Position numbers and translations under genes: made by a program
Shown: positions 48,312-60,256 of the stretch, in pieces
How the letters are laid out: the number at the start of each line of letters is the position of its first letter
Position numbering within the stretch: position 1 is the stretch's first letter
Source of the DNA: Spirochaetota bacterium
Lineage (GTDB): Bacteria > Spirochaetota > UBA4802 > UBA5550
Reading direction: 5' to 3'
DNA: 64,000 bases
Assembly: GCA_963663865.1 (NCBI GenBank)
Contig: OY760686.1
Location: 992,001 to 1,056,000 of the forward strand
The notes under the pieces: generated by a model
What the model was told of the DNA's origin: nothing
The model's database searches: none
What the model saw: the letters and a program-made list of their open reading frames with translations, nothing else

Positions 48312-50483
48312 CTATTTTAGCCTTGATGTATAGATATATGACGTGTCGTATTCATTCTGCCCCCATGCAGCAATAATATTACCCTCAGAATCAGATGCAA
48401 TTATTGGATTTCCAACATTTCCCGTTCCGGTTTCAACTGGACCTGCTGCTTTCCAGCCAAATCCATTCAGGTATTGGTTTGAATAGATATAATGAGTTTG
48501 TTTGATAGTCTTTTTCCATATTGCTGTTGCATTTCCCTCAGAGTCGAAGACAACCCTGGGATTGATAGACTTTCCATCAAGTGTTTCAATAATTTCAGGG
48601 CAGCCCCATCCGGATACTCTTGTGTAGTAGTTTGCCCAGATAGCAGTTTTGTCTGCATAACTCTGCTCCCAGATAGCTATTGCATTGCCCTCAGTGTCAA
48701 AGGATACTTGAGGGTTACTGCCGCCGTTAAAATCTTCGCAGTTAGAAACTTGCTCGGCTGAAGACCAGCCGTTATTTACTGAATATCGGCTTGCATAGAT
48801 ATCAATTGTGTATCCATTTAACTTTGCCCAGACAACCAGAGCATTGGAATTATTATCAAAGGCTACTCTCAGAGGTCCGGCATTACTGGTACCGCAATTC
48901 TCAATAATTTCAGCTGCGCTCCATCCTGAGCCTGGTGTGTATCGTTTACACAAAATATCAATTGTGTTAGTGATATAATCATTATGGATCCAGACAACGA
49001 TTGCTGAACCATTTTTATCGAATGCTATCTGAGGGCTATATAAAAAACTGAGGGTATCGTAAATGGTATCAGGGGTGCCCCAGCCTGTATCCGGTGAGAA
49101 GTGGTTAATCCAGATTTGATTAAAAACACGCCACACAGCGATTGCATTCCCATTACAGTCCATTGCAATTTGATGTTCGGTTGCGCCGCCGGAATTGGTA
49201 CAGATTAATTCAGCTGAATCCCATCCTGATTCCGGAGAATAACTGTCTGTACGGGTATAATTAATTCTTCCGTTTGCACACCAGGATATAAATCCTTCAC
49301 CAGTCTCAGAAAAGACAATTTGCGGATTGTCGGGTTTCATATCGCTGTATTCAACAGCTTCAGCAGGGCCCCATCCAGACCCTTCCATATATCGATTTGC
49401 ATAGAGGCTTGGGAATGATTCATCATCATGGCGGTCTTCCCATACGATGGTTGCGCAGTCGTTAATGTCAAAGGCAAGCTGAAGGTTGACAGGAAGGATG
49501 TCTGAGTTAGAAATGATTTCTTTTGTTCCCCATGTTTTTAAGTAAACAACATTCAGGGTAAAACTTTTCTCAGCAACTGCTTCGCCTCTGGTAACGGTTG
49601 CTGTAAGAACAACTGTAGCTTCAACGGTGTTTATCACTGTTCCATCAGGGGCTATTACAGAATTATTGCTTGAATACCATGTGACATTGGTGTCATTCGG
49701 GCCTCTTGTGGAGAGCGAAATATCTCTTGTGACGCTCAATGCATTGTCTCTATCAGCATATATAATTTCAAGATTATCAGTGTCTTCTTGAACAGCTTCA
49801 TCATCAGTGGGCGGTATCTGTTTCACGATTAGTGAAAACTCGACAATATCTGTCACTTCTCCCTTTGCGACAGTAGCAGTGAGCAGCACAATAATGTCCC
49901 CAGAACCGAAGAATGGTCTAAATACTGTTCCGTCAGGAGCTATTACAGAGTTGTTGCCTGATGTCCAAGTGACAGTTGTACCGTTAGGCCCAATAGCGGG
50001 AAGAATAACATTTGTTGTTACGCTCCTTGAATTGTCATTTCCCGCATATGTTATTTCAAGATTATTTGCGTCTTCTTCAACAGCCTGTTTGTCAGTTTGA
50101 GGGCTTTCTTTAACGGTTAGTGAAAATATAACAATGCTTTTTTCATCGCCCTTTGAGACGGTTGCAGTCAGTATTGCTACACTATCTCCTGCCCCATATG
50201 GTGGTCTTGACACCCTTCCTTTAGAGTCAATTACATAGTCTTTATCGGATTCCCATGTAACAGTTGAACCGTTATTGCATATAACAGGTAATATTATATT
50301 GCCAGTGATTGAGTCTGAGCTGTCGGAATTGTTGAATATTATTTCCAGTGATTGTGTATCGACTGTTACTGCTTCTAAATCACTGAGTGCCCTGTTTGAG
50401 GCATCATCCGAGTTATAGCAGGCCGAAGTTAAAAGAAGTGATATGCATATAATAGACGTTGTAAAATGGATGATATTTTTCAT
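48312..50483 (-). CDS. Surface lipoprotein with three bacterial Ig-like repeats and C-terminal beta-propeller-like repeats
   Basis: Lipobox LTSAC; three repeats of (SVT.N..LP..G.NG..VTW.S...VI..DG.V...LTATV); about 8 repeats of P.i.fD..GnaiavW...Y..GW. Confidence 0.8.
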   Translation of the reverse strand: MKNIIHFTTSIICISLLLTSACYNSDDASNRALSDLEAVTVDTQSLEIIFNNSDSSDSITGNIILPVICNNGSTVTWESDKDYVIDSKGRVSRPPYGAGDSVAILTATVSKGDEKSIVIFSLTVKESPQTDKQAVEEDANNLEITYAGNDNSRSVTTNVILPAIGPNGTTVTWTSGNNSVIAPDGTVFRPFFGSGDIIVLLTATVAKGEVTDIVEFSLIVKQIPPTDDEAVQEDTDNLEIIYADRDNALSVTRDISLSTRGPNDTNVTWYSSNNSVIAPDGTVINTVEATVVLTATVTRGEAVAEKSFTLNVVYLKTWGTKEIISNSDILPVNLQLAFDINDCATIVWEDRHDDESFPSLYANRYMEGSGWGPAEAVEYSDMKPDNPQIVFSETGEGFISWCANGRINYTRTDSYSPESGWDSAELICTNSGGATEHQIAMDCNGNAIAVWRVFNQIWINHFSPDTGWGTPDTIYDTLSFLYSPQIAFDKNGSAIVVWIHNDYITNTIDILCKRYTPGSGWSAAEIIENCGTSNAGPLRVAFDNNSNALVVWAKLNGYTIDIYASRYSVNNGWSSAEQVSNCEDFNGGSNPQVSFDTEGNAIAIWEQSYADKTAIWANYYTRVSGWGCPEIIETLDGKSINPRVVFDSEGNATAIWKKTIKQTHYIYSNQYLNGFGWKAAGPVETGTGNVGNPIIASDSEGNIIAAWGQNEYDTSYIYTSRLK

Positions 50484-50608
50484 TACAATCACCTCTGATT
50501 ATCCGATTAAAAATAATATAATCGAATTACAACTGGAATTAATATTCAATTATTTTTTAGTATTGACGCTATAAAAATTTATAATTATTTAATAATCATG
50601 GTGAAAAA

Positions 50609-52468: not shown

Positions 52469-54967
52469 TCAATCCGAATGAGTAATTTTTACAGGGCTCA
52501 CTTTCCAGATGTCCCGCGCGTATTCACTGATTGTCCGGTCTGATGAGAACTTGCCCATTCCCGCCGCGTTGAGAATTGAAAGCCTTGCCCATCTTCGTGT
52601 ATCCTGCCATGTGTCGGAGACCTCGTTTTGACAGTTGATATATGACTCATAGTCGGCGAAGAGGCAGTACTGGTCGCCGTGATAGAGAAGTGACTCCATC
52701 ACCGGTCTGAATATGTCTGGATTATCCCGTGAATATTCACCATTCCATATCTGGTCTATGACGCGCTTCAGCTCAGGGATCCGGCTATAATACGAATAGG
52801 GGTTGTAAGCGCTCTGTTTGAGGGCGCTGACCTCGTCCGCGTTCATGCCGAAGATGAAGAAGTTCTCTTTCCCGACTTCTTCAGACATCTCAACATTTGC
52901 TCCATCCATTGTTCCAATTGTCAGAGCGCCGTTTAACGACAGCTTCATGTTGCCTGTTCCGGAAGCCTCCATTCCGGCGGTCGATATCTGTTCTGAGAGA
53001 TCGGCGCCCGGAATAATCTTTTCAGCGTTGGATACAGCATAGTTTCTGAGAAAGATTATTTTTAAGAGATTTTTGGCGTCCGGATCGGAGTTAACGGTTT
53101 CTGCCACTGAATTGATCAGTTTGATTATCAGCTTGGCGATATAGTATCCGGGGGCGGCTTTCCCAGCGAAGATGATTGTTCTGGGTACAAATGCCCCGCC
53201 GGGATTGTCCTTAATGCGGTTGTAAAGGGTTGCGGCGTGGAGCAGGTTAAGAAGCTGTCTTTTGTATTCGTGAATTCTCTTTACCTGAACGTCGAACATC
53301 GATTGAGGATCGACCTTTATGCCGTTTCTGCTGTTGATGTATTCTGAAACAGTGTCCTTATTAGCCTGTTTAACCTTCATCCATTCAGTCTGAAAACCGG
53401 AGTCGTCAGCAATATCCCTCAGTTTTTTTAATTCACTCAAGTCTGTTGTCCACTTTTCACCTATCGCTTCGGTTATAAGCTCCGCGAGACGGGGATTGCA
53501 GAGCTTCAGCCAGCGGCGCTGGGTAATGCCGTTAGTTTTGTTGTTGAACTTTTCAGGATAAACTTTGTTGAATTCCGGGAATATAGTTTCCCTGATTATC
53601 CTTGTGTGCAGGGCGGCTACACCGTTTATAGAATGGCTTCCTATTATTGCGAGATTTGCCATTCTTACTTTTTTGTTTTCTCCCTCCTCAATGACAGAGA
53701 GGTTCCTTATCATCTGGTGCTCGCCGGGATATTTAGAGTACATATCTTTCAGAAAAATATCGTTAATACGGTATATTATCTGGAGATGACGCGGCAGAAC
53801 CTTTTCAATCAGGCACACAGGCCAGCGCTCAAGCGCCTCAGGAAGAACTGTGTGGTTTGTATAACCGAAGGCACGCACTGTAATGTTCCAGGCCTTATCC
53901 CAATCCATGTTTTCAATATCGACAAGCCTTCTCATCAGCTCCGGAATGGCAATGGCGGGGTGGGTGTCGTTTAGCTGAACGGCCGTTTTCTCATGAAAGT
54001 TGTCAAGGGTTGGATAGGCTTTCTTGTGTCTCCTTATTATATCCTGTATGGTTGCTGAAACGAAAAAGTATTCCTGTTTGAGCCGGAGTTCTTTCCCCTC
54101 AAAAACATTGTCGTTAGGATAAAGAACCCTCGTGATGTTTTCAGTGACGGACTTGTCCGATACCGCCTTTTCATAGTCTCCGCTGTTGAAGTAATCCAGA
54201 TTGAATTCGCGCGACGACTTTGCGGACCATAACCTGAGGTTGTTGACTGTTCCGTTCCTGTAACCCGGCACGGGCGTGTCGTAGGCCATGGCCATCACGG
54301 TCTCAGTGTTTACCCATCTGTGTCGGACGCATCCGCTGCTGTCGGTGTACTCCTCAACGTTTCCGTAAAACTCAACCGGGTAAAGATGTCCGGGCCTGGG
54401 AAACTCCCAGAAGTTGCCCAGCCTGAGCCAGTTGTCAGGCGATTCAACCTGATACCCGTCAATGATTTTCTGAAAGAAGATACCATAATCATATCTAATT
54501 CCGTAGCCTATTGAAGGTATCTCAAGTGTGGCCAGCGAGTCCATGAAGCAGGCAGCGAGACGGCCCAGGCCGCCGTTTCCAAGACCCGCGTCCCATTCCT
54601 GCTCCCTCAGCTCTTCAAGGTCGTATCCGAGTTCCTTCATCGCGTCTGCCGCTTTTCCGTACAGGCCAAGGTTAATGAGGCTGTTGCCGAGCGTCCGTCC
54701 GATGAGAAATTCAAGCGAAAGATAGTAAACCCTCTTCGCTTCTTTATTGTAATATGACTGCTGTGTGTTTATCCATTTTTCTATCAGCCTGTCCCTGACG
54801 AGAAGCGCCATGCTCGCGTAGCCATCGTGTGGTGTCACTGTGTATTCGTCTTTGGCAAGGGAATATTCGAGATGATTGACGAATGAATTTTTAATAGACT
54901 CTTTGTCGTTTCTCATGAGATCGTTGGTCGAAGGGGTGAGTGAACCTTTTAATATTTTCTCTGACAT
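52469..54967 (-). CDS. glgP: Glycogen/starch phosphorylase
   Basis: YYLSLEFL.GR, GLGNGGLGRLAACF, LNDTHP, QVKRIHEYKRQ, EASGTGNMK. Confidence 0.97.
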   Translation of the reverse strand: MSEKILKGSLTPSTNDLMRNDKESIKNSFVNHLEYSLAKDEYTVTPHDGYASMALLVRDRLIEKWINTQQSYYNKEAKRVYYLSLEFLIGRTLGNSLINLGLYGKAADAMKELGYDLEELREQEWDAGLGNGGLGRLAACFMDSLATLEIPSIGYGIRYDYGIFFQKIIDGYQVESPDNWLRLGNFWEFPRPGHLYPVEFYGNVEEYTDSSGCVRHRWVNTETVMAMAYDTPVPGYRNGTVNNLRLWSAKSSREFNLDYFNSGDYEKAVSDKSVTENITRVLYPNDNVFEGKELRLKQEYFFVSATIQDIIRRHKKAYPTLDNFHEKTAVQLNDTHPAIAIPELMRRLVDIENMDWDKAWNITVRAFGYTNHTVLPEALERWPVCLIEKVLPRHLQIIYRINDIFLKDMYSKYPGEHQMIRNLSVIEEGENKKVRMANLAIIGSHSINGVAALHTRIIRETIFPEFNKVYPEKFNNKTNGITQRRWLKLCNPRLAELITEAIGEKWTTDLSELKKLRDIADDSGFQTEWMKVKQANKDTVSEYINSRNGIKVDPQSMFDVQVKRIHEYKRQLLNLLHAATLYNRIKDNPGGAFVPRTIIFAGKAAPGYYIAKLIIKLINSVAETVNSDPDAKNLLKIIFLRNYAVSNAEKIIPGADLSEQISTAGMEASGTGNMKLSLNGALTIGTMDGANVEMSEEVGKENFFIFGMNADEVSALKQSAYNPYSYYSRIPELKRVIDQIWNGEYSRDNPDIFRPVMESLLYHGDQYCLFADYESYINCQNEVSDTWQDTRRWARLSILNAAGMGKFSSDRTISEYARDIWKVSPVKITHSD

Positions 54968-55071
54968 AAGTCCTCCCCGCAAAGGATAGCACAGTCCATT
55001 GCGGGGAAATTGTATCATTGATTTTTGCTGCTGTCAATAGGCGACTTTCACGTATTTGTAAATGCGTGATA

Positions 55072-56109
55072 TTATTCACTTTGTTTAAAGCGTATGGTTG
55101 ATGAAGTGACGGAACTTACCCCGGTGTAGAGGAAAACAAATAAAGCTGCAGCCTGTACAATGAGGATTGTTTCCGGCCGCCAGAGAGCCGCTAATCCTGA
55201 TTTTAACGAGACGGCGGCGTTCGCCGGTGACGGCATTATAAACGGCATCATCAGGTAATATGGGATAATTGAGAGGCTCATTATCTGATAGGGCGATATC
55301 ATCCCTCCGCCTCTGTAGTCAGCCCTCAGAAATTCGGAAAGAAATCTCCAGAGTTGCGTAATGCACAGCGGAACAAGAAGACCGGCGGTAAAGCTTCCGG
55401 TAATAATCAGGTGCATGCCCGATATGCCGGCTGCGGTATTAATAGCAGCTGTCAGCGCCTGTATCGGGAAAAGTCTGACACCGGAGAGGCCGCTTGCGTA
55501 GCATGCCTTTCTCGTCTCCTCGGTGAAGGTGAAGCTGAATCTGGCGAGTGCCAGAGTCTTTGCTTCCCCGGTTTTGCTTAAAGGCTTCCCGTAGCAGCAT
55601 CCGAAGCTTATGCATGACAGGCGGCCGATGCCCTCTCCGAAGGCATAGGCTGAGACCAGGACCGCAAGGGCTGGTATAGTTTGAAACAGCATTGAATCGT
55701 TCCCGAAGTGTCCCAGGACTGCCTTAATAATCCACGGAGCTGTAACAAGCCCGGCAAAGGCGCCTCCCCCAATTGTGATAGTGTTCTTCCTCCGTTCTAC
55801 TATCCTGGCAATAATTTTCACTGCCGGAATGCCCGCTGCGAGGGTAAGGGCTGTTATGAGCAGTACTCTGCCATAGGTTATGCCAAGAGAGCCCATCATA
55901 AGGAATGAGTAAGCAAGCGAGAAACCTGTACCCGCGGCGATAAAAACCCCGTAAAAGGTCAGGTTGCGTCCTTCCCAGCTTCCGTCCGTGTTTTTCTTTG
56001 CCGGCACGGCGGCCAGGAACTGCCAGCGTTCTTTTGTTAGAGTTTTGAAGAGAATCGTGTACGTCACGGTGAAAAAAAGGGCGAGTCCAGTTGTTATCAA
56101 GATTGTCAT
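55072..56109 (-). CDS. Divergent prolipoprotein diacylglyceryl transferase (Lgt)-like membrane protein
   Basis: Multiple TM helices; TFYG, GEGIGRLSCISFGCCYGKP, FPIQ, WRFLSEFLRAD. Confidence 0.8.
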   Translation of the reverse strand: MTILITTGLALFFTVTYTILFKTLTKERWQFLAAVPAKKNTDGSWEGRNLTFYGVFIAAGTGFSLAYSFLMMGSLGITYGRVLLITALTLAAGIPAVKIIARIVERRKNTITIGGGAFAGLVTAPWIIKAVLGHFGNDSMLFQTIPALAVLVSAYAFGEGIGRLSCISFGCCYGKPLSKTGEAKTLALARFSFTFTEETRKACYASGLSGVRLFPIQALTAAINTAAGISGMHLIITGSFTAGLLVPLCITQLWRFLSEFLRADYRGGGMISPYQIMSLSIIPYYLMMPFIMPSPANAAVSLKSGLAALWRPETILIVQAAALFVFLYTGVSSVTSSTIRFKQSE

Positions 56110-57119
56110 TTGCTGCTCCTGCAGGGAATTGCTTTTGCTATTTCTGTTCTTACCTTAACTTCAGTTTCAATCAGGGGCTTTCCGAAAAAGCGGGAAAAAC
56201 GGCTCATCGCGAAAGGATGATTGAGGTTGTCTATGATATCTTCGGAGAATCGTATTCGTCCTTTCTGAAACAGAACAATATCCACGGAACTTCCCGGAGA
56301 GTAGTAGCTCTTGGGCTGGCCGCGCCGAATGAACATTCCGCGCAGTACTTTCTGCGGAGACGAGTATCCTGTTTCTGAGTATGCCTGTGTTATCCTGCCG
56401 ATCATCAGGGCGGCGACCTCAATCATGGCAACATGGCCGGCCTGAGAGCCGCCGGGGACATCGGTGTTGATTATGGTAATACAGCGTCTGTTTTTCGAGT
56501 AAGAGTTCTCGATAGATATTACGGCGTGTGGATTGCATGAGTTGTAGGCCCCGCCGATTTCGTAGATGTCTTCAACAATGCCAGAGACGGGCGAGTGGTT
56601 CCAGTGGTACTTTTCCGGGGTTAGTCTGAACACAGCGAAATCGCCTCCGGAAAAGGTACGTATCCAGGTGTTTTTAAAGCCGAGAAGCTCTTCAAGGTTA
56701 AAGAATTTTTCCTTTATGAAGAGAAGCGGATTGGCTGAAAGCGAACCGGCAATTAATCTCGAATCGGCCGGAGATGATATCGACGAGCATTCGAGGTTCA
56801 TAGGCCTGAGCTCATCATATTTTATTTTACGCTCGAAAATCTTCCTCATGGTATTCATTCGCCGCGGATCATCCAGACATTCTTCAAGGTCCATTCCCAT
56901 TGACTGCATCTCCCTGAGTGAGTTCCGGGCAAAAGGACCCGCCGCGATATCATAGTTGAGTATTCCGATGATGCGGGATGTGTATGAAGATGTTACCGCT
57001 CTGAATAGAAGTCCCGGCCTCTCGCGCCTGGTGTTGTAGATCATCCTTATCATACGGTCACGGTAAAGCTTTTCTGTGCGGATAGCTCCGGTTTCCCGTT
57101 CAATATACTGGTGTATCAT
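56106..57119 (-). CDS. Phosphatidylserine decarboxylase-like pyruvoyl enzyme
   Basis: FERKIK, SPADSR, FRLTPEKYHWNHSPVSG, N.R, VAALMIGRI, candidate autocleavage site PGSS. Confidence 0.85.
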   Translation of the reverse strand: MIHQYIERETGAIRTEKLYRDRMIRMIYNTRRERPGLLFRAVTSSYTSRIIGILNYDIAAGPFARNSLREMQSMGMDLEECLDDPRRMNTMRKIFERKIKYDELRPMNLECSSISSPADSRLIAGSLSANPLLFIKEKFFNLEELLGFKNTWIRTFSGGDFAVFRLTPEKYHWNHSPVSGIVEDIYEIGGAYNSCNPHAVISIENSYSKNRRCITIINTDVPGGSQAGHVAMIEVAALMIGRITQAYSETGYSSPQKVLRGMFIRRGQPKSYYSPGSSVDIVLFQKGRIRFSEDIIDNLNHPFAMSRFSRFFGKPLIETEVKVRTEIAKAIPCRSSK

Positions 57120-59476
57120 TATTTAGCCTCTAACGCTTTTCTGAAAGATATTACGGCTGATGTAATTCGGATTAAATCCTGAACCTCTGATTCATCCGCC
57201 GTGCTGGCAGTGAACCTGCCAATCAGCCTCTTTGCCCCTTCGTGGAGGTTCTGATTTGAGCTTATGTTTTTAAGATCGGGCATGTAATTTCTCATGAAGC
57301 CGGGAGATGAGCACATCTCAGAGAGTTCGCCGAGAAGGATTTCACCAGCTTCATCAGTATTCCTTTTGGCGAGGTCATGCCGGTAGTAAAGCTCTGCGAC
57401 GTTGTTGAACGATGAGGCTGAAGTCTTCATTGGAGATGATTCGCCTGTCCGCTTGAGTATCCCCCTTGTGAGTTTCCACTCGGCTGAGCTTTCCTCCGGG
57501 AAAATAAGTCTCTGTTCAAGGTTGTTCACTGTGTCCCTCAGCTCTCTGTCTTCCAGGAGATCAGCGGCGTCTTCCCTTATTATCCTGACCAGGGCGAGCC
57601 TGTATTCACGGTTGTAAACCCTCAGGTAGCCGGGATAGCGGTTGCTGCTTCTGGTCTTCTGAGTGTATGATATAATTCTTCTGAGAAACTGGTTCGGCGT
57701 ATTCTTCTTAATGTAGAAGGTCGGAATTCCAATTGCTGAATCAAAGAATATCTGCCTTCTCTCACTTTCAATGATAGGGCCGTCAGGAATCATTTCAGGA
57801 GTTATAGTTCGATCCAGGACGTAGCGATAAGCGACTGAAGTGAGGATGAACTGAAGCGTTACAGCGGGGGCCATATCTCCAAGAAAACTTTCAAACTGGC
57901 TGTAATATCTGCCTTCAAATCCTGAGAATCCCATTTTTTGAAACTCCCTTAATTTGTAGAGAAGGTAGACTGACATCTCATTGTCAAAGATGCCCATTGT
58001 GGTCAGGTCTTTCTTCAGCCTGTCGACGTTTCCCATACTGCCGTCGAGGGCGGGGCTTTCGTCGGTGCTAAGAATCCAGGCGAAGTAGTCGACAAGCCTG
58101 TAATCGGACGTATAGTCTCCGCGTATTCTGAATGTCCTGGCTATAACGGAATCAAGGCCGTCAAGGCCGAATGGCGTTACGGAATACCCAAGTATTTTAA
58201 GGTTTGCCTTTTTCTTCCACCGCCTCCACATCATGCGCAGGTGTGTGAAGTCAAGTTCGTGCGGCAGAAATCCGAGCACCGACTCGGGGTGAAAATCCTC
58301 GAAGGCAAGCCTGTACGGGGCTGCCGAGAATGTGCCTACAAAGAGAGGAAGAAAGTGCTCCATAATTTTTATAACAAGGTCGCCGTTGAATTTTTCATTG
58401 GCCGGTCTGAAACCGGAACAGCTGTCGCCCATCAGGCTGTTGAGCGTTCTGCTTCCAAGGCTGACGTGGGTGCCGTTGTTTGCCAGGCTCACATTTGAAA
58501 TGTTTTTCAGATATGTCAGATGTCCGTAGGTAATCCCGGCCTCTCTGAGTTTAGAAATAGCGTTGAGGCTGCTGCGTGACAGGACCTGATGGCAAAGCCT
58601 CATGTAGTTATGCTTCTCTTCGCCTTTGTCCCAGCCCGAAAGGCAGGGGCTCATAAACAGCTCTCTGTAGAAGCTGTCCGGTATGATGTCATTGAGCCTT
58701 TTCTGTCTCTGCGGCGGGTGAGGCGCCAGGTATACCATTGCCTCCTGGCCGTGCTCCCGGAGTTTGAATCTCGTGTTAGCGAACTCTGTTAAAAGACGAG
58801 TTAGAAGATACCGGAGAGCGGTTTCCCTGGCCGGCGCTTTTCCGTATTTATTTCCGGGGGATATTGACGTGGTGTAGAAGGAAAATGTTTCCGGTGAAGA
58901 ATTGTCGTTCAGAAAGTGTTTCATCATCCATCGAACGTTACGCGGGCCTGTGCTTCCTGCTGAATCGCCGGCCGCGGCTGCCTCAGCAAACGCGAGCTTC
59001 AGAACGTAGCTTACCGGAAGCCTCAGAAAAACGGTTCCTTCCTTTTCTACAAAGAAGGTATCCGAGTCGGAGCGCCTCGGGCCTTTCCTGTCAGATTTGT
59101 CTCTGAGCAGATCGCAGCTGAGGATTTTCCTTGCGCCTGGAGAAAGACAGCTTTCAGGAAATCTGACCCAGCTGTTCTCCCATACACCTGACGAATTGCT
59201 GTTGACGAAATCATTAAGACGCCTGATGATTTTTCCGGGTGAATCGCCGCTTTTAGTCCGTCTTAAAAGGTTTCTGTAGTAGTTTGATTCAACGATGCTG
59301 CTGACCAGATCGGAATGTTCCCTGTCCGAAGCAACACATACCTGGAGCTCGTTCTCGACACCGGCAGTAGTGTCTGAGATGCTGAAAGGGCAGCTCTCCG
59401 GCGGGAAGCTTTTATTTGGATTTAACGGAATAATTCTTTGAACATCGCAGTTGTTCAACTGGAGCGCTTTGTTCAT
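57119..59476 (-). CDS. Large hypothetical protein, putative glutamine-synthetase/gamma-glutamylcysteine-ligase-fold carboxylate-amine ligase
   Basis: 785-aa ORF with RBS GGAGA; motifs TAGVENELQ, NGTHVSLG and LR...GFEGR in the order expected for this fold. Confidence 0.65.
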   Translation of the reverse strand: MNKALQLNNCDVQRIIPLNPNKSFPPESCPFSISDTTAGVENELQVCVASDREHSDLVSSIVESNYYRNLLRRTKSGDSPGKIIRRLNDFVNSNSSGVWENSWVRFPESCLSPGARKILSCDLLRDKSDRKGPRRSDSDTFFVEKEGTVFLRLPVSYVLKLAFAEAAAAGDSAGSTGPRNVRWMMKHFLNDNSSPETFSFYTTSISPGNKYGKAPARETALRYLLTRLLTEFANTRFKLREHGQEAMVYLAPHPPQRQKRLNDIIPDSFYRELFMSPCLSGWDKGEEKHNYMRLCHQVLSRSSLNAISKLREAGITYGHLTYLKNISNVSLANNGTHVSLGSRTLNSLMGDSCSGFRPANEKFNGDLVIKIMEHFLPLFVGTFSAAPYRLAFEDFHPESVLGFLPHELDFTHLRMMWRRWKKKANLKILGYSVTPFGLDGLDSVIARTFRIRGDYTSDYRLVDYFAWILSTDESPALDGSMGNVDRLKKDLTTMGIFDNEMSVYLLYKLREFQKMGFSGFEGRYYSQFESFLGDMAPAVTLQFILTSVAYRYVLDRTITPEMIPDGPIIESERRQIFFDSAIGIPTFYIKKNTPNQFLRRIISYTQKTRSSNRYPGYLRVYNREYRLALVRIIREDAADLLEDRELRDTVNNLEQRLIFPEESSAEWKLTRGILKRTGESSPMKTSASSFNNVAELYYRHDLAKRNTDEAGEILLGELSEMCSSPGFMRNYMPDLKNISSNQNLHEGAKRLIGRFTASTADESEVQDLIRITSAVISFRKALEAK

Positions 59477-59806
59477 ACCTGTGTATTATCTCCCATCTGT
59501 TTTTTTAAGCATATATTATTTTTACATATAAAGTGTTGGCGGAATATAAGGAATTTGTCTGGATTATGTTAAAGGTTACAGGTTTCAGGGTTTGATATTG
59601 TGAAAGTATTTTGTGTGGGCATTTTTAGAAAATTGCTGCCGAAACAGTTTTGAAGCGGAAAGATGAATTCAGAGTGTTCTTCCGGCAGGGGGAGGGTCAA
59701 GATTGTTTTTGAGGTTTTAACAGCTGAAAAATGATGTAAAATTCTTGCCCTTGGCAAACCTGAATTTAGAGTTATCCGTAGTCATTTTATATATAAGGGA
59801 AAACCA

Positions 59807-60256
59807 ATGAATCTTAGAATTAGAAAGGCAAAAGCCAATGATATATCTCACCTCTGCTCATTGCTTGCAATACTTCTTGATCAGGAAGCGGAATTCAAGC
59901 CGGACAGAGAACTTCAGGAAAGGGGTTTTAAACTGCTTCTTGCAAATCCGGAGAAAGGATTTGCCGTTATTACGGAACTTGATGGTGAAGCGGTTGCTAT
60001 GTGCACCGTCCTTATGACTATAAGTACGGCTCTGGGAGGCCCTGCAGCTGTGCTTGAGGATGTTGTCGTAAGACCGGAACATCGCGGGAAGGGAATCGGC
60101 TCAGCGATGATAAATGAGGTTAAGCGAATGATCGAAGAGGCCGGCTGTCTCAGGATAAGCCTTCTGACAGACAACGACAACGCCCGCGGTCAGAAGTTTT
60201 ACTCATCACACGGATTCACATCATCCCCCATGATTCCGATGCGTCTGATTCTGTAA
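59807..60256 (+). CDS. GNAT-family N-acetyltransferase
   Basis: LEDVVVRPEHRGKGIGS acetyl-CoA motif, N..GQKFY..HGF. Confidence 0.9.
   Translation: MNLRIRKAKANDISHLCSLLAILLDQEAEFKPDRELQERGFKLLLANPEKGFAVITELDGEAVAMCTVLMTISTALGGPAAVLEDVVVRPEHRGKGIGSAMINEVKRMIEEAGCLRISLLTDNDNARGQKFYSSHGFTSSPMIPMRLIL

Follow-up and report, generated by a model that had tools for sequence, protein, structure and literature searches.

Phosphorus-free membrane lipids are a main microbial route through phosphate scarcity, and several phosphate-starvation lipid systems are known by the names of their genes, among them PlcP, BtaAB and OlsBA. A further replacement was described in phosphate-limited Desulfatibacillum alkenivorans PF2803T, in which phosphatidylethanolamine (PE), phosphatidylglycerol (PG) and cardiolipin give way almost completely to glucuronosyl-glycerols and to a new class of sulfur-containing aminolipids, 'butyramide cysteine glycerol' (BACys) (Ding et al. 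2024, PNAS, PMC11181052). BACys was found in this species only under phosphate limitation, and no genes are assigned to BACys there (PMC11181052). The present analysis concerns a window of 64,000 nt from contig OY760686.1 of a Spirochaetota bacterium (the window being the whole stretch of DNA that was analysed) and, within it, three adjoining minus-strand genes at 55072-59476, hereafter genes 1, 2 and 3 or the trio, whose predicted products resemble carboxylate-amine ligases, phosphatidylserine decarboxylase (PSD) and the diacylglyceryl transferase Lgt, respectively. We put the probability that the trio is a pathway for a BACys-type phosphorus-free sulfur aminolipid at roughly 0.55; its substrates, step order, membrane orientation and regulation are what we infer from the evidence given below. 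An earlier reading of the window's letters (the original prediction) had known of no characterised pathway that combines these three genes, and a literature search for the trio, which did not cover the amidoligase survey of Iyer et al. 2009 (PMC3268129), found no assignment.

The open reading frames (ORFs) of gene 1 (57119-59476, 785 aa), gene 2 (56106-57119, 337 aa) and gene 3 (55072-56109, 345 aa) all lie on the minus strand and overlap each other. Read directly, the junction of genes 1 and 2 is TAATG, with base 57119 common to the stop and the start codon, and that of genes 2 and 3 is ATGA, a 4-base stop/start overlap at 56106-56109; the GC content is 0.37 in the region upstream of gene 1 (59500-59999) vs 0.45-0.53 inside the genes. 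The coupled arrangement behind an AT-rich region is thus as originally predicted, and the motifs quoted at that time for genes 1 and 2 translate where they had been placed, their key residues being invariant in 24 homologues of gene 1 and 25 of gene 2. A scan of species-representative genomes found at least 579 stretches encoding a relative of gene 1, and the best 80 of these were used for the locus statistics. In 79 of the 80 loci gene 1 is followed by gene 2, and 66 loci contain gene 3; those lacking it mostly end at a contig or window edge, and all five checked genomes with such a locus do encode gene 3 (E<=1e-143), which in four of them is placed on the same strand just beyond the examined stretch. 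Clustering of the ORFs of the 80 loci revealed no other gene conserved to the same degree as the trio, the next cluster covering 28 of 80 loci. Of 101 sampled genomes from the class that includes Trichlorobacter thiogenes, the same 37 contain gene 1, gene 2 and gene 3. The trio is one functional unit and is conserved as such across phyla, which the original prediction had named as a check. Its presence on top of the usual psd and lgt genes, a further check named there, was also found: the window genome encodes, elsewhere, a canonical PSD that scores 195 bits and two members of the Lgt family that score 148 and 131 bits, and in all of the other five carriers checked there is a canonical PSD of 142-157 bits together with an Lgt of 264-274 bits.

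Ligases of the GS/GCS superfamily work by activating a carboxylate, which in most cases is the glutamate gamma-carboxyl, and the superfamily is defined by five features: GhExE or Ex[EH] (strand 1), acidic residues (strands 2 and 3), [HD]x[NH] (strand 4), arginines on and before strand 5, and Ex[RK]x2D (strand 6) (Iyer et al. 2008, PMC2588565). Sequence searches place gene 1 in a family of its own. The whole protein matched no Pfam family at E<=1 and no NCBIfam model, and three pieces of it matched no Pfam family at E<=10; at the same threshold, two of four distant homologues had no Pfam match and the other two had only weak unrelated matches below the cut-offs. Comparison with PDB sequences (phmmer and profile) gave only noise, such as NifB at E 1.3, and an ESM Atlas search returned only the family's own unnamed clusters. 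At least 2956 of 8000 candidates scored were homologous at E<=0.001; all named homologues are 'hypothetical' and none carries a Pfam domain. The 605 representative clusters collected by an exhaustive search all consist of gene 1 family members or their fragments, with no outside relatives among them. The family is well conserved, with a mean column identity of 63% across 24 aligned members, in which G39, E41, E43, N333, N334, G335, H337, R414, R418, R419, E521 and R523 are invariant; E100 is located on a predicted strand (98-100).

The AlphaFold 2 model of gene 1 (predicted local distance difference test, pLDDT, 70.8; predicted TM-score, pTM, 0.78) was compared with 48161 chains using VIA-align. 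All seven chains found at Z>=8 (Z 10.4-14.8) are GS/GCS/PafA-type ligases, namely PafA (Z 14.8), GshA (14.4), Dop (14.3), GshF (13.9), a YbdK-like protein (13.8), E. coli gamma-GCS (13.3) and plant GCL (10.4), and ranks 8-13 are occupied by glutamine synthetases and yeast GCL; the alignments with the ligases of Z 13.3-14.8 span 295-344 residues. The motif G39-V-E41-N-E43 (59348-59362, minus strand), an exact and invariant GhExE, sits on the first long predicted strand (36-50). It is followed, in superfamily order, by the NNGTHVS segment (58460-58480, minus strand; predicted strand 336-342), whose H337-x-S339 is a candidate strand-4 motif in partial agreement with [HD]x[NH], and by E521-G-R523 (57908-57916, minus strand), a candidate strand-6 Ex[RK] motif on a predicted strand (519-522) in a low-confidence part of the model. 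A GS/GCS/PafA-type fold, outside every described sequence family, is supported for gene 1 by this modelling. Gene 1 resembles GshA, GshF, YbdK, PafA and Dop in the predicted fold, in the GhExE on the first core strand and in the later conserved His and Glu-x-Arg, and differs from them in lacking detectable sequence or profile similarity and in its length of 785 aa, with large insertions and a C-terminal helical domain.

PSD, as described for the E. coli enzyme, has an Asp-His-Ser triad and a Gly-Ser cleavage site and acts at the cytoplasmic leaflet (PMC7952604). Gene 2 matches the PSD family PF02666 with 119.8 bits vs a gathering cut-off of 22, but it falls under the cut-offs of all five NCBIfam PSD equivalog models (the best, NF001941, gives 138.9 bits vs 371) and shares 24% identity with the canonical PSD of its own genome. 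With the gene 2 family profile, the beta chain of E. coli PSD is matched at E 2.4e-17, and the E value for PsiD-like tryptophan decarboxylases is 2.6e-6. Residues D119 (56763-56765) and H172 (56604-56606), which the alignment pairs with the PAD and YH motifs of the E. coli enzyme, show no variation in 25 sequences. The same holds for G276-S277 of the PGSS motif (56289-56294; all on the minus strand), where the protein is predicted to cleave itself and form the pyruvoyl group, and for S278. Since these residues align with the triad and the cleavage site of PSD, gene 2 should self-cleave and carry a pyruvoyl group, and such an enzyme would decarboxylate a substrate with a free alpha-amino acid group. 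Gene 2 is therefore predicted, from its sequence, to be a divergent pyruvoyl decarboxylase of the PSD family; the PSD motifs and the candidate cleavage site pointed out in the original prediction are borne out by the PF02666 match and the invariant residues. The similarities with E. coli Psd (PDB 7CNW/6L06) comprise the domain, the Gly-Ser self-cleavage site and the Asp-His-Ser equivalents; the differences, beyond the equivalog scores, are the cleavage motif itself (PGSS vs LGST) and an invariant Lys of the gene 2 family at the position of E. coli D142.

Lgt transfers diacylglyceryl from PG to a cysteine thiol whose amino group is amide-bonded; its residues R143, R239, E243 and R246 are essential and belong to a pocket activating the glyceryl C3-O bond, mutants at G145 and E151 are inactive, and the periplasmic face of the protein is negative and the cytoplasmic face positive (Mao et al. 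2016, PMC4728403). The gene 3 protein of the window scores 21.6 bits against PF01790, below the cut-off of 24.9, but its orthologues score 42.1, 41.3, 44.5, 41.4, 40.0, 34.5, 27.2 and 32.1 bits, all above it. A search of PDB sequences with the gene 3 profile did not find Lgt, which was found only by profile-profile and fold comparison. An hhalign comparison with 29 Lgt-family proteins, repeated with E. coli Lgt added, gave Prob 97.4-97.5 and E ~1e-11. The AlphaFold 2 model (pLDDT 89.3) is a nine-helix membrane protein, for which the top Foldseek match is E. coli Lgt 5azb (E 7.8e-3, prob 1.00), and VIA-align superimposes it on 5azc_A with Z 13.0 and a root-mean-square deviation of 3.9 over 231/284 residues, the next match reaching 6.5. 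In the hhalign mapping, gene 3 keeps the equivalents of Lgt Y26, G27, G138, G142, R143, G150, G154, R239, E243 and R246; among them, Y53, G162, R163, R255, E259 and R262, which correspond to Y26, G142, R143, R239, E243 and R246, are invariant in 26 sequences. The counterpart of the Lgt signature (E. coli G142-G154) is G162-R163-L-S-C166-I-S-F-G170-C171-C172-Y-G174 (55588-55626, minus strand), and that of R239/E243/R246 is R255-x3-E259-x2-R262 (55324-55347, minus strand). With the fold and the catalytic Arg and Glu equivalents in place, gene 3 can be regarded as Lgt-like, as had been suggested. Unlike E. coli Lgt (PDB 5AZB/5AZC), however, it carries invariant cysteines C166 and C171 in place of N146 and E151, has S165 (Ala in most homologues) in place of G145 and, in the model, possesses one additional transmembrane helix at either end.

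The two proteins also differ in the distribution of charge. Counted per membrane side on an alignment in which gene 3 is mapped on E. coli Lgt, lysines and arginines number 24 on the head-domain side vs 4 on the other side in the window protein, and the loop mean of 26 homologues is 18.2 vs 1.7, whereas in E. coli Lgt the numbers are 8 vs 13. By the positive-inside rule, this reversed bias suggests that gene 3 has its catalytic cavity open towards the cytoplasm, so that its active site probably faces inwards, inverted relative to Lgt. A cytoplasmic site would fit the partner enzymes, because the ligase depends on ATP and the cytoplasmic leaflet is where PSD acts. Prediction of a complex of gene 2 and gene 3 gave a score of 0.00, from which nothing follows on whether the two proteins bind. 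In one genome, an open frame of 748 aa covers gene 3; considered as a candidate fusion, it proved to be an overlapping frame in GC-rich DNA. As a side observation, the two 'canonical' Lgt-family genes of the window genome (G000:C1:2509362-2510078 and 1120310-1121014) score 148 and 131 bits vs 190-243 in some relatives, and both carry signature-motif Cys residues where E. coli Lgt has Asn or Glu, as gene 3 does; the order to which the window belongs holds at least three Lgt subtypes.

The combination of a carboxylate-activating ligase, a decarboxylase of a free alpha-amino acid group and a thiol diacylglyceryl transferase suggests S-diacylglyceryl-N-(4-aminobutanoyl)cysteine as the simplest product that would require all three. 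In the proposed pathway, gene 1 would link glutamate, through its gamma-carboxyl, to the cysteine amino group, and gene 3, through its cytoplasmic cavity, would move the diacyl- or alkylglyceryl moiety of PG onto the cysteine thiol. The latter reaction would release glycerol-1-phosphate inside the cell, so that a phospholipid would be converted into a phosphorus-free lipid and its phosphorus recovered. Gene 2, acting at the membrane surface like PSD, would then remove the free alpha-carboxyl of the gamma-glutamyl head group, leaving a 4-aminobutanoyl amide; alternatively, gene 2 might first convert glutamate into 4-aminobutyrate, which gene 1 would ligate to cysteine to give the same product. 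The resulting S-(diradylglyceryl)-N-(4-aminobutanoyl)cysteine, or an isomer of it, would be zwitterionic like PE and would replace phospholipids when phosphate is scarce. In the original prediction, serine or cysteine is ligated to an acceptor and then decarboxylated; the carboxyl lost is more likely the alpha-carboxyl of gamma-linked (or free) glutamate. For the new aminolipid or thioether lipid that it expected more generally, BACys is now a concrete candidate. The protein lipidation offered as an alternative found no support, no conserved small ORF being present near the module.

The composition of the BACys head group is in accordance with this product. Gamma-Glu-Cys minus CO2 is 4-aminobutanoyl-cysteine, C7H14N2O3S, with a computed mass of 206.0725, and the head-group fragment of BACys has m/z 205.064, C7H13O3N2S+ (PMC11181052), which is the predicted composition less one hydrogen; the match is one of composition, not of connectivity. 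In a literature search, the term 'butyramide cysteine' was found only in Ding et al. 2024. A search with a Desulfobacterales gene 1 showed that D. alkenivorans DSM 16219 encodes a homologue, SAMN02745216_03986 (P0354), an 827-aa 'hypothetical protein' that is 53% identical to the gene 1 protein of the window over 695 residues, gap-free; a search with the Desulfonema homologue found no Desulfatibacillum protein among its best 120 matches. We take DSM 16219 to be strain PF2803T, the BACys producer. One Desulfobacterales genome, in which gene 1 shares 97% identity with P0354, has genes 1, 2 and 3 contiguous, and its genes 2 and 3 match the PSD and LGT families with 131.9 and 32.1 bits.

The neighbourhoods of the trio contain genes of phosphate supply, a pattern that was noted before the match with BACys was made. 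The examined flanks of 16 of the 80 loci include pstC/pstA/pstB, phoU, phoB or genes for PhoR/PnpS-type kinases (Pho genes), and in 11 of these Pst or PhoU is present. Representative neighbours exceed the NCBIfam equivalog cut-offs: PstA scores 293.9 bits vs 193, PstB 404.8 vs 343, PhoB 297.2 vs 296.2 and PhoU 229.5 vs 130. The arrangement varies by lineage, with Pho genes upstream, downstream or on the opposite strand, and in one genome phoR and phoU are inserted between genes 1 and 2. With one or two Pho loci per genome of several Mb, a Pho locus would fall into a 14-kb window by chance in an estimated ~1% of cases, although the loci are not phylogenetically independent. The window genome's own pst/phoU locus lies ~1 Mb from the trio. 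This locus (L138, G000:C1:13000-25000) has an unusual, interleaved apparent order on one strand, pstB, phoU, response regulator, kinase, pstC, pstA, in which PhoU and PstA/PstC were recognised by family search and the other genes by ORF size only.

Five independent lines of evidence converge on the pathway: the chemistries of the three families, the lipid composition, the homologue in a BACys producer, the Pho neighbours and the predicted placement of all three active sites on the same side of the membrane. More tentatively, at somewhat less than an even chance, the trio could be the missing BACys pathway in a more specific form, with an inside-out Lgt relative lipidating a cytoplasmic small-molecule thiol, so that PG is turned into a phosphorus-free lipid and glycerol-1-phosphate is returned to the cell.

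A number of points weigh against the assignment of the trio to BACys-type lipids. What ties gene 1 to the ligases is its modelled fold: the original prediction of a GS/GCS-fold ligase stands as regards the fold (VIA-align Z 13-15) and the GhExE motif, but Foldseek found nothing at E<=0.001 (best E 0.66, with GshF, GshA, YbdK and Dop among the top rows below significance), and hhalign of the gene 1 family with nine GCS2 proteins gave Prob 0.1. The model has pLDDT<50 at 295-334 and at 454-524, the latter including E521 and R523, and the motifs of strands 4 and 6 are partial, HxS for [HD]x[NH] and ExRxxS (S526) for Ex[RK]xxD. Glutamate and cysteine are inferred substrates. As to gene 3, the loss of Lgt N146, E151 and G145 means that the donor need not be PG, and a single rule, positive-inside, carries the suggested inversion of the protein. 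The structure of BACys is itself tentative, being based on tandem mass spectrometry (MS2) (PMC11181052), and a 'butyramide linked to cysteine' may be an isomer of the predicted head group. For DSM 16219 itself, the contiguity of genes 2 and 3 with gene 1 is suggested by the genome with the 97% identical protein. The module was found in only 38 of 151 sampled genomes from the order to which a Desulfococcus genome belongs, so that D. alkenivorans may carry it by coincidence; co-occurrence of module and BACys in one producer, with the module in about a quarter of the sampled Desulfobacterales, is weak evidence on its own. No nearby Pho gene was found in 64 of the 80 loci, that of the window included, and comparison of the region upstream of gene 1 with the pst intergenic region of the same genome revealed no shared motif, the only matches being a single 10-mer and some AT-rich 8-mers, a result that is in itself evidence neither way.

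The same folds, residues and co-occurrence would also be expected if the module modified another lipid head group and the agreement with the BACys formula were coincidental; the amine of PE or phosphatidylserine could be gamma-glutamylated and then decarboxylated, or diacylglyceryl-serine or -cysteine could be decarboxylated in the way phosphatidylserine is converted into PE. PSD relatives normally act on lipid-bound serine (PMC7952604), and lipid-related genes occur beside the trio, phospholipase-C-like genes in 11 loci and a predicted PHP-GT4 protein in 20 of 80. We nevertheless consider this explanation unlikely, since it accounts neither for the constant presence of an Lgt-type thiol transferase nor for the equality in composition with a lipid of a species that encodes gene 1. 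The neighbours themselves deserve description. The PHP-GT4 protein, ~815 aa long, is located beside or inside the module (e.g., L007:9293-11752) and consists of a C-terminal GT4 glycosyltransferase and an N-terminal part that, judging by its HxH start, is a putative PHP-type phosphoesterase; its best NCBIfam match is GlcNAc-phosphatidylglycerol synthase (118.6 bits vs a cut-off of 480). Trichlorobacter has gene 1 and gene 2 followed by the gene of a 735-aa unknown protein, then GT4 and finally gene 3, and the window genome has a homologue of the ~815-aa protein elsewhere (G000:C1:1660184-1662640). Within the same phosphate response, the PHP-GT4 protein may represent the arm that leads to glycolipids (glucuronosyl-glycerols). 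In 11-12 of the 80 loci, a gene resembling Zn-dependent phospholipase C (PF00882) and a gene for a DUF2062 membrane protein directly follow gene 3 (L060:10905-11840, L049:10331-10846 and ~10 further Geobacteraceae loci), which fits phospholipid breakdown during remodelling.

A soluble product made by the ligase and the decarboxylase, such as a thiol, a polyamine-like amide or a cofactor precursor, with gene 3 as an anchor, exporter or unrelated transferase and with no lipid involved, seems improbable to us. GS/GCS-type ligases do mostly yield soluble gamma-glutamyl compounds (PMC2588565), some PSD-family enzymes use soluble amino acids, the gene 2 profile also matches PsiD-like tryptophan decarboxylases (E 2.6e-6), and gene 3 lacks the signature E151 and N146 of Lgt. 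However, the Arg/Glu network with which Lgt binds and activates its diacylglyceryl donor is retained in gene 3, and gene 2 is far closer to E. coli PSD (E 2.4e-17) than to PsiD.

Modification of proteins at the cytoplasmic face, by PafA-like tagging, by Lgt-like lipidation of a protein cysteine or by both, is very improbable. The known substrate of Lgt is a protein (PMC4728403), and PafA (Z 14.8) and Dop (Z 14.3) are among the best structural matches of gene 1, but the score of PafA is no better than those of GshA, GshF and YbdK; no small ORF is conserved near the module, the widest small-ORF cluster being found in 5 of 80 loci, far downstream; and a pyruvoyl decarboxylase, which needs a free alpha-amino acid, is a better fit to a small head group. 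Finally, that genes 2 and 3, which do belong to the PSD and Lgt families, are spare copies of psd and lgt beside an unrelated gene 1 is hardly credible, given the exactly shared 37 of 101 genomes, the fixed order with overlapping frames, NCBIfam scores far below the equivalog cut-offs, the changed key residues and reversed charge bias relative to Lgt and the canonical copies in all six carriers checked.

The surroundings of the trio in the window are otherwise unrelated to it. A promoter-like site precedes gene 1 (59543-59572, minus strand; TTAACA, an 18-nt spacer and TATATT, 10/12), identified by its match to the consensus only. Directly past the stop codon of gene 3, a sequence scan found an inverted repeat (55048-55069), a possible end of the transcription unit, and a near-consensus sigma-70-type promoter-like site for the glycogen phosphorylase gene follows at 55009-55037 on the minus strand (TTGACA, a 17-nt spacer, TACAAT and a TG extended -10; 11/12), placed 53 bp after gene 3. 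Given the repeat and the strong promoter-like site for the next gene, the transcription unit most likely comprises three genes only. The glycogen phosphorylase gene (52469-55018) is the downstream neighbour of gene 3, and the upstream neighbour of gene 1 is a divergent GNAT acetyltransferase gene; an OmpA-like protein, an enzyme resembling phenylacetate-CoA ligase and others are also encoded nearby. As the original prediction noted, neither pss nor lsp or lnt adjoins the trio in the window annotation, and an Rfam search of the trio region returned no family match. A predicted lipoprotein of 726 aa (48312-50492, minus strand) contains three domains of the 'atrophied bacterial Ig' type (PF20578, 247 bits) and, after them, an extended C-terminal part that is repeat-like.

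The distribution of the family is patchy. Gene 1 is present in 6 of 41 genomes when the window genome is taken together with its 40 nearest relatives (the six including the window's own), and in none of 150 other genomes of the window's phylum. Among the at least 579 stretches, the named carriers are mostly Thermodesulfobacteriota, with some Acidobacteriota and one Brocadia metagenome-assembled genome. Cultured carriers include Trichlorobacter lovleyi, T. thiogenes, Desulfonema ishimotonii, Desulfococcus, Geobacter pickeringii and Citrifermentans bremense. In a midpoint-rooted FastTree tree, the window gene 1 is placed with the five copies found in its order. A few carriers have gene 1 in two pieces or cut by a contig end (G304:C1:1346060-1348377, G290 contigs C32 and C14 and G297:C23:5068-6054 are split or disrupted copies), and one gene 2 contains an in-frame TGA; these cases possibly reflect decay or assembly errors.

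The enzyme superfamilies concerned and the replacement of phospholipids by phosphorus-sparing lipids are already known, as is, since 2024, the BACys class; the gene assignment, the ligase family, a glutamyl head group as the substrate of a PSD relative and an inward-facing Lgt relative with a small-molecule acceptor would be new. If the proposal is true, gene 3 represents the first Lgt-family enzyme with a non-protein acceptor and gene 1 a new gamma-glutamyl-type ligase family with ~3000 known sequences, which would widen the scope of three enzyme families. The sulfur- and nitrogen-containing lipid class of anaerobic sulfate and metal reducers was reported in 2024 without genes, and their assignment would make the trait traceable in genomes and metagenomes (at least 579 species genomes contain a relative), provide a phosphate-stress marker for anoxic sediments and aid the reading of sulfur-containing lipids as biomarkers. 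The hypothesis is directly testable in cultured strains and in E. coli.

Compared with the described enzymes, the proposed roles differ mainly in their substrates: gene 2 would act on a gamma-glutamyl head group or free glutamate, vs phosphatidylserine for Psd, and gene 3 would use a small-molecule thiol as the acceptor, vs a lipobox protein for Lgt; unlike Lgt, gene 3 has genes 1 and 2 as constant partners and occurs in addition to a normal lgt. At the level of the whole system, the trio resembles the known phosphate-starvation lipid systems in the proposed replacement of phospholipids under phosphate scarcity and in the proposed Pho control (PMC11181052, PMC5193443). Desulfovibrio-type relatives aside, D. 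alaskensis G20 produces only glycolipids and ornithine lipids under phosphate limitation (PMC5193443). Known systems include the PlcP-Agt glycolipids, the BtaAB betaine lipid, the OlsBA ornithine lipid and sulfoquinovosyldiacylglycerol (SQDG). Unlike those systems, it would employ unrelated enzymes and a head group built from glutamate and cysteine and attached through sulfur, and the proposed direct transfer from PG would skip the separate phospholipase C step.

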